Shown piece after piece: positions 270 through 6,303 of a stretch of DNA of 37,615 nucleotides. The stretch comes from a virus. Lineage: Duplodnaviria; Heunggongvirae; Uroviricota; Caudoviricetes. The position numbers and the translations under genes are program-made. The notes beneath the pieces were generated by a model that saw only the letters and a list, made by a program, of their open reading frames with translations, did no database searches and was not told where the DNA came from. Where the stretch lies: positions 1-37,615 of IMG/VR virus record IMGVR_UViG_2721755720_000002. One strand, given 5' to 3'. Position 1 is the stretch's first letter, and each line of letters opens with the position of its first letter.

Positions 270-614
270 TTAGTCCTTGCGTAGCTCGCTGATTCTTCTG
301 TAAGTCTCTGGTGCTTTGTTTCCGTGTATCTTCATTTCAGACTTCAACAGAGCAACGAGGGAATCCCATTCGTTGAGGATGCCTTTGAATGCCGGAACGC
401 GCTTTGCAACCTTGTCGAATGAATCTCTGATTTCTGGAATCTGCTCAACAAGCGCAACGCATCGCCGGAAGTCTGCTGCGTCATGTGGAGCACCGAAGCT
501 ATGACCATAGATATTCTTTTTCAGTCCACATGCGATTGAGGCAAGAGTTGCGCTACTGATGCCGACATCGCCAGTCGATTGCCATTTCAAAACCTTCATA
601 GCCAAATCTGACAT
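270..614 (-). CDS. hypothetical early-left phage protein (114 aa)
   Basis: Intact ORF with GGAGA Shine-Dalgarno before ATG at 614; no family recognised. Confidence 0.45.
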   Translation of the reverse strand: MSDLAMKVLKWQSTGDVGISSATLASIACGLKKNIYGHSFGAPHDAADFRRCVALVEQIPEIRDSFDKVAKRVPAFKGILNEWDSLVALLKSEMKIHGNKAPETYRRISELRKD

Positions 615-654
615 TTCTTGTCTCCATAAAACAAAACCCGCCGTAGCGAGTTCA

Positions 655-684
655 GATAAAATAAATCCCCGCGAATGCGAGGAT
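655..684 (-). terminator. candidate intrinsic terminator or attenuator on the minus strand after the ASCH-like gene
   Basis: Minus-strand hairpin TCCTCGC-ATT-GCGGGGA (one G-U pair) followed by a U-rich tract; read by eye. Confidence 0.3.
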
Positions 685-686
685 TG

Positions 687-971
687 TTATTCATTGCCGA
701 TATTCACCTTTATCGCGAACACCTTTACCGGTTTATCTCCGAAGTGTGGATGTGTGATTGTCTTCACTTCATATCCGCCATACGGGACGTCAATTCTGCG
801 ACTGGAATCGTCGCGCTTCGGATATCCCTTTGTGATAATCAGGCGGTCATACTCGCGGAACATAATTCGCTTATTCCAGTAGCCATTGCACAGGCGATAC
901 TCTTCCGTTTTCTCTCCGCGAATCATGGCATCGAAGTATTCACCTTTGACGGCAAGTTGCAGGTTAGCCAC
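687..971 (-). CDS. ASCH-like small domain protein (95 aa from GTG start)
   Basis: AGGAGG then 6 nt then GTG at 971-969; product VANLQLAVKGEYFDAMIRGEKTEEYR resembles ASCH-type N-termini; the longer track ORF (687..1046) lacks an RBS and overlaps the upstream gene. Confidence 0.45.
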   Translation of the reverse strand: MANLQLAVKGEYFDAMIRGEKTEEYRLCNGYWNKRIMFREYDRLIITKGYPKRDDSSRRIDVPYGGYEVKTITHPHFGDKPVKVFAIKVNIGNE

Positions 972-1182
972 GGTTAACCTCCTGCGCCGTTTTGATGATT
1001 GCTGCCAGACAATTCTTGCAAGGAACAAGCAGCGGTCCCTGCTCAATGCTCAATAGCGCATGCTGAGCACCATGAAAAAGCCATTCGAATGACCCAGGCC
1101 GATGACCGCACCATGTCTCAATCTCGTGCTTAGGGAGTTTAACTCCCTCTCGATAGTCATATTTGATGATGTGCTTGCTCAC
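964..1182 (-). CDS. hypothetical protein (72 aa, GTG start)
   Basis: AGGAGG 7 nt upstream of GTG at 1182; its stop overlaps the ASCH-like start. Confidence 0.45.
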   Translation of the reverse strand: MSKHIIKYDYREGVKLPKHEIETWCGHRPGSFEWLFHGAQHALLSIEQGPLLVPCKNCLAAIIKTAQEVNRG

Positions 1183-1370
1183 GACTTCACCTCCTGTTGA
1201 GCAGAAACCTGATTTTTGAGTGATTCAGAAATATTCCTGCAATACCTAGCGGATTCATCGTCGAAAATGCTTTCGAAATACTCAGCAATCCAGCCGAACA
1301 CAACAACCTGCTCATTGCTTGGATTTGCACTTTGATTGAAGGCGGTTATTAGTGATGCACTCATACTCAC
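1179..1370 (-). CDS. hypothetical protein (63 aa; GTG at 1370 or ATG at 1364)
   Basis: ORF with AGGAGG upstream; start codon ambiguous; GTGA overlap with the upstream stop. Confidence 0.4.
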   Translation of the reverse strand: MSMSASLITAFNQSANPSNEQVVVFGWIAEYFESIFDDESARYCRNISESLKNQVSAQQEVKS

Positions 1371-1927
1371 TTAACCTCCTGTTTTGGGGCTGCTGGAAGT
1401 GGCATCCAGTGGGTTATGATTACTTCGCGAGGATTGCAGTCGTCCTCTACTGGCTGCCACTCCGTCCATCCATTGGTTTTATGGACAAAGAAATAAGCAG
1501 GAATGTAGTCTGGTTCATCTCCTTCAAAATATGTTCCCCAGCAAAGATACAAGCAATTGCTATCAGGCATTCGCTCACTACAGCTTATCCAACCATCCGG
1601 AGTTCCCGGAGAGTTGCCATTTACATCGAAGTTTGGCTCTGCGTCCTGAACCAGGAGGATGTAACCATTCTTGGCTGTATCAAGTTCTAACGCCTCGGTG
1701 ACGGTGCCGAAATAGCGATTACCTAAATCAGCATCACAAGTGCTTACATCAATGGAAACTTCCATGCCTTCGATTAATTCTGGCAAGTTGTAAGTTTGGC
1801 TTACAGGCTCTGCTTCCAGCGATGACAGTGCAATTCGTGCCAGTTCCATTTGTTCGCCACGGGTAAGCCCGTTTTCAAGCGGGGATTTAATGAACAATTC
1901 GATACGTTCTTTAGTGATAGTGCTCAT
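1367..1927 (-). CDS. DUF551-like phage protein (186 aa)
   Basis: AAAGGAGAG Shine-Dalgarno then ATG at 1927; C-terminal ...FFVHKTNGWTEW...ITHWMPLPAAP resembles the DUF551 signature; the track ORF extends upstream without an RBS. Confidence 0.55.
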   Translation of the reverse strand: MSTITKERIELFIKSPLENGLTRGEQMELARIALSSLEAEPVSQTYNLPELIEGMEVSIDVSTCDADLGNRYFGTVTEALELDTAKNGYILLVQDAEPNFDVNGNSPGTPDGWISCSERMPDSNCLYLCWGTYFEGDEPDYIPAYFFVHKTNGWTEWQPVEDDCNPREVIITHWMPLPAAPKQEVK

Positions 1928-1928
1928 A

Positions 1929-2627
1929 TCACTCTCCTTTGATGCGAATGCCAGCGACGCATGGCACATTAACTTCCACGATGCGCACAGTTGGTTTGTA
2001 CATCTCAATCGCTGTCAGCCAGTCAGCGCCAGTCATGCGCTTTTCTGCATCGCCATTAGTCCACTTAACCGGTACACCAATAGCCTTCATCGCGATTTCT
2101 ATTTCCCCGGCGATGGCGCTTTTTCCGCAACCAGTAAAACCAGATACAACGACCAGAACTTCACCTTTGGCTGGTTTTATTTCCCGCGCTTCCAGTTCTG
2201 CTATGCGCTTACTTCCATCCGAGATAACACCTTCGTAATACTCACGCTGCTCGTTGAGTTTTGATTTTGCTTCCTCAAGCTCAACTCTCAGCTTCCCTAC
2301 CGTTAACGCAATATCCTCGTTCTCCTGGTCGCGGGATTTGATGTATTGCTGGTTCCTTTCCCGTTCATCCAGCAGCGCCAGCACGGTAGCTGGACTGGCT
2401 GCGGCGATGAATTCAGCATTGGCCTGCTGTTCCATTTGGAAATCTTCATCGAAACCGCTTTCAGGATGCGCTCCTTCAATTCTGCAAATGGGAATATATC
2501 CAGCAGCCTCGCGATGAATTAGCGCATCATCACAATCAAATCGGCTCTCTCCATATTCGAGCGACCATACACCACACGTTGCTTTTTCTGCCTTGGCACG
2601 CAGTGCCTCATAGTCAATCTTGCTCAC
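1929..2627 (-). CDS. Ea22/ead-like lambdoid early protein (232 aa, GTG start)
   Basis: AAGGAGG then GTG at 2627, overlapping the upstream stop (GTGA); coiled-coil middle and C-terminal region recalled as Ea22-like. Confidence 0.5.
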   Translation of the reverse strand: MSKIDYEALRAKAEKATCGVWSLEYGESRFDCDDALIHREAAGYIPICRIEGAHPESGFDEDFQMEQQANAEFIAAASPATVLALLDERERNQQYIKSRDQENEDIALTVGKLRVELEEAKSKLNEQREYYEGVISDGSKRIAELEAREIKPAKGEVLVVVSGFTGCGKSAIAGEIEIAMKAIGVPVKWTNGDAEKRMTGADWLTAIEMYKPTVRIVEVNVPCVAGIRIKGE

Positions 2628-3226
2628 TGGTTGCCTCCTTTGCGAATCTGTTCAGCGATATCTTCGAGAACACCATCAGAGAATGAGCGGTCAAAATCGC
2701 CTTCCGGCGCATTAGCCATAAACTCAGTAGAGGTAAGAATCATCCGGGCAATATCCGCGGCGTTCTTCGCAGTATCATCAATAAAACCAGCTTCCCAGGC
2801 AGCCAGCATTCTGTTCGCCACAAAGTAAGCTCCCTCCTTGCGTGCTTCAGTCTTCACTTCAGCCAGGAAAGCATCGGTGGCTGGTGTTTGCGGCATCCCT
2901 CCATCTGTTGCGCAGATATACGCATCAGATATTTCATCCTGCTCGCCATCAAACACGTAGCAACTCTGTGCGATAAATTTATTCAGCCCAGCATTCTCCG
3001 CTGCCAGCGCTGAAAACTTCTCGTGTGCCAACTTAACAGCCGAATCAGCCTGCTTAATTGACTCAATCGCTCTCTGCTGGTCTTCGGCCAGCGCCGAAAT
3101 CTTGGCCTCCGCTTCAGCAAATTTACGCACCAGATATTCAGCGTTTGTTTCGTTAACCTTTAAATCACATGGGATGCATTTACCTTTCAGAAATCCATCC
3201 ATCTCAATTAGTGACATTTGTTTCAT
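2624..3226 (-). CDS. hypothetical acidic early protein (about 200 aa; start at ATG 3226, alternatives 3244 or 3217)
   Basis: ORF track 2624..3244; the ATG at 3226 overlaps the stop of the upstream small ORF (ATGA). Confidence 0.4.
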
Positions 3227-3387
3227 TTCTTCCCACTCCGCCACATCGCATTCAGATATTTGTTGTCATTAACAGAACCGAAACTCTCTCGCTTAAGTAA
3301 TTCCTCTCTCGATGGCATTGGCTTTACGCGCTGGCGAATAATCATTTCTGCCGGAAGAATTCCGGGATTGTATGCAAGTCCTCTCAT
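3223..3387 (-). CDS. small hypothetical protein (54 aa)
   Basis: GAGGA Shine-Dalgarno right after the upstream stop, then ATG at 3387; product [15 protein letters not shown]... Confidence 0.3.
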
Positions 3388-3397
3388 GGTAAATTCC

Positions 3398-3694
3398 TCA
3401 GTCATTACTGATAGCGCCATAGCGTGAGCGGTAATTACGCAGGCGCGGGTCGATATATTCAGGGAATTGGGTATATGTGGCTTTGCGGAATGGTCGGATT
3501 GATGTCTGGTAAATTCGCTCTCGTTCTTCTTTCTCTGCAAGCCATATACAATGGCGAAATTCCTTTTCCTCTTTCGTTTCCTGCGGTAGCGACATTATCC
3601 GATCGTAGTTTTTTCTGAATTTATCCAGCACCTCCGATACGGAATTGCCGGAACAGCGGCGCGCGTCATCCGCACCATACAGAGGCGCTGGCAT
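3398..3694 (-). CDS. hypothetical protein (98 aa)
   Basis: AGGAG Shine-Dalgarno before ATG at 3694; sits directly downstream of the exonuclease gene. Confidence 0.45.
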
Positions 3695-3710: not shown

Positions 3711-4259
3711 TTATTTAGCTAACTTTTTCCAGATCGCTGAAACGTATTTGGCTTGGTGAATGGCATCATCAAGCGCGTTGTGGCGAGTTCCTTTGAATGG
3801 CATATCTCGCTTAGGGTCGAATCCTATTACCTTCCCAAGTTCGACGATTGTTCTTACGTCGCGGTCATTCCACCACTTCCACGGAACTGGCTGCCCTGTC
3901 AGCGAATAACTGTTTCGGAGAATAACGCAGTCAAATGATGCTCCATTCCCCCAAACCTGAACGAATTTGTGGTTAGCGTTCTTTATGATGAATTCAGATA
4001 ACCATGAAAGAGCCGTTGAAAGCTCCTGAGTGTTGCTGGTTAGCGATTTTCTGGCTTCTTCACTCTGTTCCAGCCACCATAAAATCGTTGAAGCGTCAGG
4101 ACGCGCTCGATATCGCATTGATGATTCAAGCGAGATATTTACCGAGAACTCTTCTCCTGTTTCTCCGGTATTCGGGTCAAAGAATACCGCCCCAATAGAA
4201 ATAACTGGCGCGTATGGCCCGTTGCCCATTGTTTCAAGGTCAACCATCAAGTGATTCAT
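3711..4259 (-). CDS. DnaQ-like (DEDDh) 3'-5' exonuclease
   Basis: 182 aa; MVDLETMG and HNALDDA motifs typical of DEDD exonucleases; AAGGA Shine-Dalgarno; lies next to SSB and the annealing protein. Confidence 0.7.
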   Translation of the reverse strand: MNHLMVDLETMGNGPYAPVISIGAVFFDPNTGETGEEFSVNISLESSMRYRARPDASTILWWLEQSEEARKSLTSNTQELSTALSWLSEFIIKNANHKFVQVWGNGASFDCVILRNSYSLTGQPVPWKWWNDRDVRTIVELGKVIGFDPKRDMPFKGTRHNALDDAIHQAKYVSAIWKKLAK

Positions 4260-4267
4260 GTAAGTCC

Positions 4268-4783
4268 TTAAATTGCGTGAATAGCGTGACGAGGGAAGGG
4301 GAGAGTTACTGGTGCAAAGGGGATATCGTCGTCAAAATCCATAGGTGGTTCGCTGTGATTTCCCTGCTGCTGAGGTTGCTGTCTTTGTTGCTGACCATTA
4401 TTTCGCTGAGGTGAAGACTGTTCATTGCCTCCTTGCTTGCCACCAAGCATTTGCATGGTTCCACCAACGCCCACGATGACTTCGGTAGTGAACCGATCCT
4501 GTCCGCTTTGATCCTGCCATTTTCTTGTCCGCAATTTGCCTTCAAGATAAACCTCAGAGCCTTTTCGCAGATATTCGCTGGCAATTTCTTCCAGTTTCCC
4601 GCTCATTACCACGCGGTGCCACTCCGTCTGCTCCTTTTGCTCTCCAGTTTTCTTATCACGCCATTGTTCTGACGTAGCAACGGTAAGGTTTGCAAATGCC
4701 GTTCCTGATGGTGAATATCTGATTTCTGGATCATGCCCAAGGCGACCAATAATGATCACCTTATTTACGCCTCTGCTTGCCAT
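4268..4783 (-). CDS. ssb: single-stranded DNA-binding protein with a 15-residue extension after the DDDIPF tip
   Basis: OB-fold N-terminus [22 protein letters not shown], Gly/Gln-rich linker, [11 protein letters not shown] followed by [15 protein letters not shown] before the TAA. Confidence 0.85.
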
Positions 4784-5491
4784 TTATGCCGCCTGTTTTA
4801 GTTCGTTAACTCTGATGTTCATTACCTGAACGCATTTAGCCTGCGCCTCCTCGTTGCCAGCCATTAATTGCCAGTCATGCTGATAACGCTCGATGAGTTT
4901 TTTCTTGTCAGTTTCTGTCGCTGCATAATCGCTGAAGTCTTTCAGGATTTGTTCGCAGTCAACCGATGGATATTTCTGGTTGGTATTTTCTGGTGATGGT
5001 TTGTTATCTGATGCTGGGATTGCCCAGCCCGGCAGCGATGGAGGGAGCCAGTAAAATCCTGTTCCATCCTTGAGTTTTGCCCTGTGCCATCCCTGCTTTT
5101 TGTCGAGAGATGTTTGTGCGAAACCTTCCTCAAGGTTATACAGATACCGACCGATTCCCCATTGAACGGCAGCGCGCTTCATTGCACCGGAACGACCACC
5201 TTTGACGGCTTCTACCTGCGTGTTTTCAGCAGCATCCCATTTGGTTACCCATTCGGAATCAATCTTTATCGATATGCCGCATTCAACGCCGCCGTTGTTG
5301 GGAATATCGCGGTATTCATTGCGCCATCCTGCTTTGCCGCAAACATCGTCCAGGCGTTTCATGATTGCCCGGTTCGTGACATAAGCCAGCACCATAGCCC
5401 ACACTTTGCCATCGCGTGTTTTACCGCTTTGCTGTATTCGCCATTCGATATCTTCAGGGCTGAATGGCTCATCGAATTTATTCAAATCCAT
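4784..5491 (-). CDS. Rad52-family (Sak/DUF1071-like) single-strand annealing protein
   Basis: 235 aa; KRAAVQWGIGRYLYNL motif recalled as Rad52/22-type; GAGGTGA Shine-Dalgarno; its stop directly abuts the ssb ATG. Confidence 0.55.
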   Translation of the reverse strand: MDLNKFDEPFSPEDIEWRIQQSGKTRDGKVWAMVLAYVTNRAIMKRLDDVCGKAGWRNEYRDIPNNGGVECGISIKIDSEWVTKWDAAENTQVEAVKGGRSGAMKRAAVQWGIGRYLYNLEEGFAQTSLDKKQGWHRAKLKDGTGFYWLPPSLPGWAIPASDNKPSPENTNQKYPSVDCEQILKDFSDYAATETDKKKLIERYQHDWQLMAGNEEAQAKCVQVMNIRVNELKQAA

Positions 5492-5991: not shown

Positions 5992-6303
5992 TTAGGCGGC
6001 TGATGTTTCTTCTTTCAGGCTTTCGAGATATTTACGTGGGTCGTCGCAACATTGGCATTCGCTGTACCAATCCACCCAGCGATCAGTAAGCCCCATATCT
6101 GATAAATCTTCATCGGTAAGGCTCTCATCCCACATCTCAAGGCCGTTAGCATTGCAGTAATCAGGCTTGATGTTGTTGTCATACTGAAAGGCGTCATAAT
6201 CAGCCAGTGCGTCCATCAGGCGAACACCCTCTTCAACACTTGCCACTTCTACAATGAACGGCTTCATAGGTACTTGCGGGATATGCCAGACACGTAATTT
6301 CAT
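5992..6303 (-). CDS. acidic hypothetical early protein with ECQCC motif (103 aa)
   Basis: GGAGGA Shine-Dalgarno before ATG at 6303; highly Asp/Glu-rich product. Confidence 0.5.
   Translation of the reverse strand: MKLRVWHIPQVPMKPFIVEVASVEEGVRLMDALADYDAFQYDNNIKPDYCNANGLEMWDESLTDEDLSDMGLTDRWVDWYSECQCCDDPRKYLESLKEETSAA

Follow-up and report, generated by a model that had tools for sequence, protein, structure and literature searches.

The 37,615-nucleotide stretch of DNA analyzed here (the window; positions 1 to 37,615 of IMG/VR virus record IMGVR_UViG_2721755720_000002, from the Caudoviricetes) is, as a whole, a P22-like (Sf6/HK620-like) prophage, and our subject is its gene for an SSB, a protein binding DNA in single-stranded form, that continues for 15 conserved residues beyond the canonical acidic SSB tip. 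The ssb gene lies on the minus strand at 4268..4783, where an open reading frame (ORF) beginning at 4783 encodes 171 amino acids and closes with TAA at 4268-4270; the product matches PF00436 (E 4e-37) and phrog_44 (E 3e-67). Residues 1-112 (4448..4783, minus strand) form an oligonucleotide-binding (OB) fold; the Pfam match covers residues 6-105, and enterobacterial or E. coli-type SSB crystal structures (PDB 1eqq, 7f2n, and 1sru) are matched at E ~1e-65. A disordered Q/G/P-rich linker follows at residues 113-145 (4349..4447, minus strand; pLDDT <50 in an AlphaFold 2 model), and then the acidic tip ending in DDDIPF at residues 146-156 (4316..4348, minus strand). Both the structural alignments and the SSB profiles end at residue 156, leaving the tip internal and 15 residues, the tail, after Phe156 (residues 157-171; 4271..4315, minus strand). 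With its PF00436 OB fold, disordered linker, and identical tip, the protein resembles E. coli SSB; there, however, the chain ends with Phe, whose alpha-carboxylate is gripped by the pockets of partner proteins (PMC10164576), whereas here 15 conserved residues follow it. A sequence-only reading of this DNA had described a normal SSB whose canonical tip is no longer C-terminal, with 15 residues between DDDIPF and a TAA next to the Shine-Dalgarno sequence of the exonuclease gene. The domain matches, the variable linker, and the ORF translation bear this out, and positions 4268-4330 cover the stop codon, the tail, and DDDIPF. The minus-strand sequence at the end of ssb is ATTTAAGGACTTACATG, in which the AAGGA Shine-Dalgarno sequence overlaps the ssb stop codon (TAAGGACTTAC; 4260..4270, minus strand; a mosaic junction) and lies 5 nt ahead of the exonuclease ATG (4257-4259). 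The gap between the ssb stop and the start of the exonuclease gene is just 8 nt, and the HNH endonuclease ORF that relatives carry within this gene is absent from the window site.

An ORF reaching 15 codons beyond a motif would be unremarkable by chance; it is replication across genomes that makes the extension real. Among complete E. coli genomes (5,426 in all), tail DNA was present in 406, and in 298 of these the tip and tail were contiguous in an ORF annotated as ssb by PGAP. The tail DNA core was also found in at least 120 IMG/VR contigs, and the tail extended an SSB in 91 of the 120 sampled. When 5.8 billion proteins were searched, ~115 of the best 120 protein clusters carried the tail, and the tailed clusters among these 120 came from Escherichia, Klebsiella, Citrobacter, Salmonella, and Enterobacter. 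The window gene is 96 to 98% identical to ssb of HZ41 and ECP1 and ~74% identical to ssb of HK75, mEp235, mEpX2, epsilon34, and g341c, all of which have the same 15-residue extension; CP-1639 also has a tailed SSB. A scan of species-representative genomes returned 9 loci only. The contig CACSKA010000001.1 (locus L138), labeled “Chryseobacterium sp. 18061,” likewise carries a Rec module of enterobacterial type whose SSB is tailed, and “Campylobacter jejuni” phage records (MG0656xx) were 98 to 99% identical to rV5-like coliphages; both look like cases of mislabeling or contamination.

Some close relatives of the window (Sf6, ES18, sal5, and phiKp_30) do stop directly after DIPF, as they would if the window had lost its stop codon through a fault in sequencing or assembly or through a private mutation of recent date. 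Yet these relatives hold an endonuclease gene or a remnant of one at that spot, and the extended arrangement recurs identically in the 298 complete E. coli genomes, in many named phages (the eight listed above), and in the ~115 protein clusters. This prevalence, over hundreds of independent genomes, together with purifying selection on the extra codons rules out a stop-codon error, the concern raised in the sequence-only reading, and we regard such an origin as virtually excluded. That reading had also held that a stop directly behind DIPF in related genomes would speak against the extension; such genomes exist (Sf6 and ES18), but their stops accompany an inserted homing endonuclease gene, and the extended allele stands. 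Three features described below were absent from it: conservation across the whole family, the association with homing endonucleases, and carriage of the module by proteins other than SSB. We conclude that the 15 residues truly belong to the protein, being translated and under selection.

Conservation was assessed in an alignment of 50 cluster representatives, all of them tail-bearing and 74 to 96% identical to the window protein. Mean column entropy was 0.32 bits for the OB fold, 1.49 bits for the linker, and 0.21 bits for the tip. Tail residues 1-10, at 0.14 bits, were conserved above the OB fold, and tail residues 11-15, at 0.73 bits, varied conservatively only (A/T/V, I/V/M, H/Y, A/V, and I/L). 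The window tail fits the consensus A-P-[VI]-[TG]-L-[PQ]-[FY]-x-x-H-x-I-x-x-[IL]-COOH, and in every carrier the xPF of the acidic tip is followed by exactly 15 residues. Coding DNA for estimating the ratio of nonsynonymous to synonymous change (dN/dS) was taken from back-translated pattern scans. The five tail codons left unfixed by the search pattern (APVTL) gave a proportion of synonymous differences (pS) of 0.58, a proportion of nonsynonymous differences (pN) of 0.07, and a dN/dS of 0.07, from pairwise comparisons that are not independent and a sample partly ascertained through the motif. In the tip, pN was 0.02 and pS was 0.77 to 0.88. Synonymous change was abundant in the tail DNA (for example, GCTCCTGCGACATTACCATTTCCTCGCCAC versus GCACCAGTAACTCTCCCCTTCCCTCGTCAC), with every synonymous codon in use at tail P2, T4, and L5. 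Because synonymous sites vary freely, the constraint acts at the amino acid level and not on the DNA. Conservation at the DNA or RNA level, as a boundary sequence or a ribosome-binding-site context, was considered and is ruled out for most of the tail on the same grounds; only the last few nucleotides of the tailed gene overlap the Shine-Dalgarno sequence of the next gene.

The tail is not tied to one kind of SSB. It is present on several subtypes of E. coli-like SSB, and the mosaic breakpoint between SSB body types falls within the linker region. Tailed SSBs occur in prophages of both Enterobacteriaceae and Morganellaceae: a profile search recovered more than 100 prophage SSB clusters that end in a Morganellaceae variant, APIGLPYPRHAIYVI (Providencia, Proteus, Moellerella, and Xenorhabdus). 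A second class of tailed SSB (MAINTITISGNVGKD..., 153 to 157 amino acids) is PF00436 positive, and its OB fold is only ~25% identical. An exhaustive search of 50%-identity representatives gave 11 matches, all short (51 to 120 amino acids, mostly apparent fragments) and with divergent tails among them; matches are few there, presumably since tailed SSBs of full length are grouped with canonical SSBs as their representatives. Searching phage genomes with the tail by tblastn revealed it at the extreme C terminus of the DnaB-type primase-helicase of lytic, ~145-kb Vequintavirinae, which ends in ...DDDTPFAPIGLQYAKHAIYVI, that is, an acidic xPF tip followed by a homologous 15-residue tail. The corresponding ends are ...GPDDDTPFAPIGLQYAKHAIYVI in KpS8 and Mydo, ...DMDDDTPFAPIGLQYANHAIYVL in KE23, and ...DFDNDTPFAPIGLQYANHAIYAL in GAP31; the segments concerned are 545-3032 of locus L169 (Salmonella phage KE23) and 488-2551 of locus L170 (Klebsiella phage KpS8), with further cases in loci L175, L176, and L178. 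An SSB-like protein of ~400 residues (phrog_4477) is tailed in Vequintavirinae as well, ending in ...MDFDEDIPFAPVGLQYPNHAIYVL in SSBI34. Thus, within this subfamily the same peptide ends both an SSB-like protein and a primase-helicase, in examples drawn from different phages. Since the tail also ends these two proteins, tip plus tail is a portable C-terminal module that is not specific to SSB.

Some relatives carry an additional gene at the boundary between tip and tail. The match to the window ssb is split by ~450 bp in Sf6, IME10, N7, Bas106, and Huey; there the SSB ends in ...NFDDSDIPF or ...NFDDEIPF, followed at once by a stop codon and then by an HNH endonuclease gene. The representative from Sf6, gp26, had no Pfam match and is recognized by PHROGs (phrog_2340, E 3e-47). 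In Sf6 the cassette supplies the SSB stop codon, and the gp26 ORF reads out through the former SSB tail, which forms the last 14 residues of gp26; a remark in the GenBank entry of Sf6 had pointed out “14 contiguous amino acids identical to ... E. coli SSB.” Elsewhere, gp26 homologues end soon after ...HNKPIYP(D/E)E with unrelated residues, and the phrog_2340 profile match stops at residue 143 of 159 in gp26. These two observations show that the tail is native to SSB and that the endonuclease ORF simply runs through it. The converse, a tail that began as the native C terminus of the endonuclease and was left on SSB as a deletion scar, was rejected on the basis of the homologues that lack it elsewhere and of the age and diversity of the tail on SSBs lacking any endonuclease.

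Pairs of alleles locate the insertion precisely. Relative to the window, locus L164 (flanks 97% and 94% identical) carries a 463-bp cassette in place of window positions 4313-4328 (minus strand). Locus L168, an empty-site allele with an Sf6-type tip, places the insertion precisely where the tail begins, so that in window terms it comes immediately behind the codon for Phe156 (4316-4318). The empty-site DNA at this boundary is GATATCCCCTTTGCACCAGTAACTC, and the junctions in Sf6 and Huey and the rV5 SSB-like gene mark the same segment. Presence/absence polymorphism at the same site was also seen for Sf6, for Huey, and for rV5 versus Bas48 and Bas56. In KE23, a gp26 homologue (33% identity, E 1e-19) starts within the tail codons of the primase-helicase gene; the KpS8 primase-helicase has kept its tail, and the endonuclease is absent. 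In the genus Vequintavirus, endonuclease-free alleles of the SSB-like gene (Bas48_0087 and Bas56_0085) end at ...DIPF, at 408 amino acids. In the endonuclease-carrying alleles (rV5 gp209 and Bas49_0089), the stop codon is replaced by APVGLQYGKSRIHAL, a 15-residue tail is gained, and the endonuclease ORF starts inside it (856-2722 of loci L180, rV5, and L181, Bas49, versus 501-1727 of loci L182, Bas56, and L183, Bas48). One endonuclease family thus inserts immediately after DIPF codons in three unrelated genes, and it can bring tail codons along. Judged by these gene arrangements, the tip/tail DNA is a putative homing site of one HNH endonuclease family, with cleavage and homing themselves predicted, and the window holds the uninterrupted allele. 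The arrangement resembles that of free-standing phage HNH homing endonuclease genes in its precise-site polymorphism within 94 to 97% identical backgrounds, its position beside highly conserved coding sequence, its decayed remnants and chimeras, and the recurrence of one family at one motif in three unrelated genes. It differs from such loci in that the window itself is an empty site and that cleavage specificity and homing are predicted.

Several further observations concern the same region. A second, unrelated type of endonuclease (HNH_3/zf-His_Me_endon, ES18 gp47) lies right after ssb in tail-less Salmonella phages (2010-2531 in loci L003, sal5, and L004, ES18), and a similar HNH_3 gene occupies positions 2037-2504 of L168, between the annealing protein gene and ssb; the flanks of ssb are a hot spot for selfish endonuclease genes. 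Decay products of the cassette include chimeric or truncated ORFs that join SSB to an HNH C terminus or HNH to the exonuclease (P0131, P0134, P0144, P0173, P0180, and P0183), and phiKp_30 (L009, 1950-2155) has a noncoding HNH remnant that retains mutated tail DNA (…CACGCTGCATATGCAATTTAA). In ~100 complete E. coli genomes the tail DNA alone matched (query positions 33-78), with no RefSeq feature at that place, which suggests that PGAP often fails to annotate the endonuclease ORF of gp26 type.

The sequence-only reading had proposed that the extended SSB might be specific for the phage recombination proteins encoded beside it. In the window, these are a Rad52/Rad22-family single-strand annealing protein (4784..5491, minus strand; PF04098, E 5e-26), the stop codon of which abuts the ssb start and which is labeled Erf-like in annotations of Sf6, ES18, and HK75, and an Rv2179c/DnaQ-like 3'-5' exonuclease (3711..4259, minus strand; PF16473, E 2e-73), followed by the anti-RecBCD gene abc2 (3398..3694, minus strand; PF11043, E 3e-61). 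Across tailed SSBs, three unrelated annealing protein families (Rad52-like, ERF [PF04404], and Sak4-like AAA_24) lie upstream, and the downstream gene encodes an exonuclease, a homologue of Abc2 (phrog_656), or something unrelated. The tail therefore stands beside any of three annealing families, whether or not the exonuclease or abc2 is present, and the Vequintavirinae primase-helicases and SSB-like proteins carry it with no annealing protein, exonuclease, or abc2 as neighbors. Specificity for one neighboring phage protein is thus unsupported. The varying neighbors and the primase-helicase carriers instead favor a partner common to all tail-bearing phages, and since the temperate carriers encode no polymerase, the common partner would most simply be a host protein. 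On this distribution, the tail partner is probably of host origin.

The gene content downstream of ssb was itself variable. Beyond the same TAA, relatives carry either GGACTTACATG (exonuclease) or TCAGGAGAAAATCATG (abc2). The exonuclease gene is an optional module whose point of insertion coincides with the ssb stop codon (3711-4270 on the minus strand of the window; compare loci L002, L005, and L006): after the shared ...GCAATTTAA, relatives continue with the exonuclease and then abc2 or go straight to abc2. The exonuclease-abc2 junction of the window is TAAATAATCAACAGGAGAAAACCATG, which repeats the TAATCA..GGAGAAAA context. A homologue of P22-type superinfection exclusion protein gp17 (PF17420) is encoded at 5992-6303 on the minus strand, in the same early-left operon as abc2, and a 206-residue ORF at 2624-3244 had no Pfam match.

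Related systems offer partial precedents. Sf6 gp27 and ES18 gp48 (“SSB-1”) lie, as does the window ssb, with the gene for the annealing protein on one side and abc2 on the other, and are 97% (Sf6) and 90% (ES18) identical to the window ssb at the nucleotide level over the shared part. Their products stop at DIPF because of the endonuclease gene present there, whereas the window SSB is tailed like those of HK75, epsilon34, ECP1, and CP-1639. According to a 2025 survey, the lambdoid Rec-module “SSB-1” group has never been studied experimentally, and the extension is unmentioned in that survey (PMC12315714). Full-text searches of the searchable literature for the tail peptide and for C-terminal extensions of prophage SSBs found nothing relevant. 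The window copy therefore appears to be an ordinary member of a large family that is seemingly uncharacterized as such. A peptide shared by an SSB-like protein and a primase-helicase recalls, by analogy, T7 gp2.5 (SSB) and gp4 (helicase-primase), and it may point to a shared docking site on a third protein. The acidic tails of T7 gp2.5 and gp4 each have a free aromatic residue as their last one and bind to the polymerase of the phage. Unlike those of T7, the aromatic residue of the tail module is internal, the 15-residue tail is nonacidic and ends in Ile or Leu, and its temperate carriers have no polymerase of their own. The SSB of HK620 is, like the window protein, a phage Rec-module SSB, and its tail (NDYPPF) stimulates the cognate annealase Sak4, for which its C-terminal residues are needed (PMC5928155). 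The HK620 tail ties that C terminus to a phage recombination partner; it is, however, terminal and SSB-Ct-like, with no extension, and the HK620 protein and bacterial SSB are not close homologues. Finally, Bas52_0087, a trigger of the defense system DRT10, was reported with an FDDDIPF motif (bioRxiv 10.64898/2026.04.29.721553). Bas48_0087 ends in SFDDDIPF, resembling that motif, with orthology likely only. As this likely orthologue type ends at a free FDDDIPF, the DRT10 trigger is probably not tied to the tail.

What might the composite C terminus do? The terminal Phe of SSB sits buried within the proteins that interact with it, where a “basic lip” secures the alpha-carboxylate; deletion of the Phe abolishes partner binding and is lethal (PMC10164576). 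With the Phe internal, its alpha-carboxylate would be unavailable to the docking pocket of host SSB-interacting proteins, and we infer that classical partners would bind poorly or differently and that the tail would alter the partner set of the SSB. The pattern of the tail itself, with alternating hydrophobic residues, an invariant His, and a hydrophobic free C terminus, would suit a second docking peptide. We therefore favor, at a rough probability of 0.55, a reading in which the 26-residue tip plus tail acts as one composite docking peptide: the internal tip would lose classical docking, and the tail would serve a partner common to all tail-bearing phages, most likely a host protein. A docking peptide is preferred over a mere cap because the tip is under selection, because both the sequence and the length of the tail are conserved, and because the unit is reused on a primase-helicase.

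A number of points weigh against this reading. Viable phages (Sf6, ES18, and Huey) have tail-less SSBs, and in the genus Vequintavirus the SSB-like protein has the tail only in endonuclease-carrying alleles; the tail is thus dispensable in some backgrounds and can hitchhike with a selfish gene. Were the tip simply inactivated, the strong purifying selection on it would be difficult to account for. Part of the selection estimate was conditioned by the search, which fixed some codons through tail residues, and only the unconditioned codons are reported. The AF2 monomer model, built from the 50-sequence alignment, is poor (mean pLDDT 47.5, tail ~30) and carries no structural information beyond predicting the tail to be disordered.

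Some of these same points would be expected if the tail were a neutral by-product, a translated but functionless scar of endonuclease gain and loss or of mosaic recombination: the tip/tail boundary is the endonuclease insertion site, the rV5-type tail comes with the cassette while endonuclease-free alleles end at DIPF, decaying SSB::HNH and HNH::exonuclease chimeras exist, and tail-less SSBs function in viable phages. A scar, however, would not account for a dN/dS of ~0.07 amid abundant synonymous change, for conservation of tail residues 1-10 above the OB fold, for a length fixed at 15 across the Enterobacteriaceae, Morganellaceae, and Vequintavirinae variants, or for retention of the primase-helicase tail in KpS8 with no endonuclease nearby, and we think this origin improbable. 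Slightly better placed, though still doubtful, is the idea that the tail only blocks the Phe carboxylate, keeping host ExoI, RecJ, RecQ, and the like off phage recombination intermediates, and has no partner of its own. The alpha-carboxylate is a key anchor in host partner pockets (PMC10164576), the surrounding gene cluster is devoted to protecting and annealing DNA ends (anti-RecBCD abc2 and the annealing protein), and the DRT10 preprint proposes that phage SSB tips may interact with ExoI and defense systems (bioRxiv 10.64898/2026.04.29.721553). Any extension would cap the Phe, yet this one is strongly conserved in sequence and in exact length, and capping of an SSB tip has no obvious meaning on the primase-helicases that carry the same tail.

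Two readings assign the tail a known kind of signal. In one, which we also consider improbable, it would be a beta-clamp-binding motif that tethers SSB or helicase to the host sliding clamp. Change of the Gln of the epsilon clamp-binding motif to Ala (ATSMAF) weakens clamp binding, and this Gln, at position 1, is replaced by Pro in all tail variants. PVTLPF and PIGLQY do resemble the hexapeptides QLSLPL and QTSMAF, and ATSMAF has been used as an altered clamp-binding-motif variant (PMC3664792). The QLxLxL/F hexapeptide calls for Gln at position 1 and hydrophobic residues at 2, 4, and 6; PVTLPF offers Pro at the former and V, L, and F at the latter, a resemblance in sequence only, and tail positions 2-6 fit the pattern hydrophobic, small, Leu, any, Phe/Tyr. 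A disordered terminus is the usual place for clamp-binding motifs, and both carrier proteins act at replication forks. Set against this, the equally conserved second half of the tail (PRHAIHAI) is left unexplained, and the resemblance is short. In the other, to which we give still less weight, the tail would be a C-terminal degradation or remodeling signal that sets protein lifetime. The hydrophobic free C terminus is conserved ([AVS]-[IL]), with R, K, or H before it, and the tail is predicted to be disordered; basic residues followed by a hydrophobic ...AI, VI, or AL end recall the MuA-type ClpX signal. This similarity is weak, and it explains neither the conservation of APVTLPF nor the sharing, by a helicase and an SSB, of a degron fused to an acidic tip.

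Returning to the composite docking peptide, we tentatively extend it into a broader hypothesis, which we hold to be possible but rather unlikely as a whole. Tip plus 15 residues would be a previously undescribed, portable short linear motif that phages of Enterobacterales place on various replication and recombination proteins (two SSB folds, an SSB-like protein, and a primase-helicase) and that docks onto one host hub without a free Phe; its coding DNA would be a homing site, and the endonuclease would transplant the motif onto proteins ending in DIPF. For the proposed spread of the tail by the endonuclease there is one clear case, in Vequintavirus (as in rV5).

More than a dozen genome maintenance proteins are organized around the SSB tip, the free Phe at the end of which is regarded as essential. 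With its internal tip and the conserved peptide behind it, this large natural family offers a ready-made experiment on the contribution of the carboxylate, and it points to a partner sought both by the recombination SSBs of temperate phages and by the primase-helicases of lytic phages. The finding bears on recombineering, in which portability depends on the cognate SSB and on compatible tails, and it may bear on the triggering or evasion of defense systems that sense phage SSBs. It also offers a clear case of a homing endonuclease family that targets the DNA of a protein interaction motif and that, in one lineage (rV5), has carried the motif to a tail-less gene.

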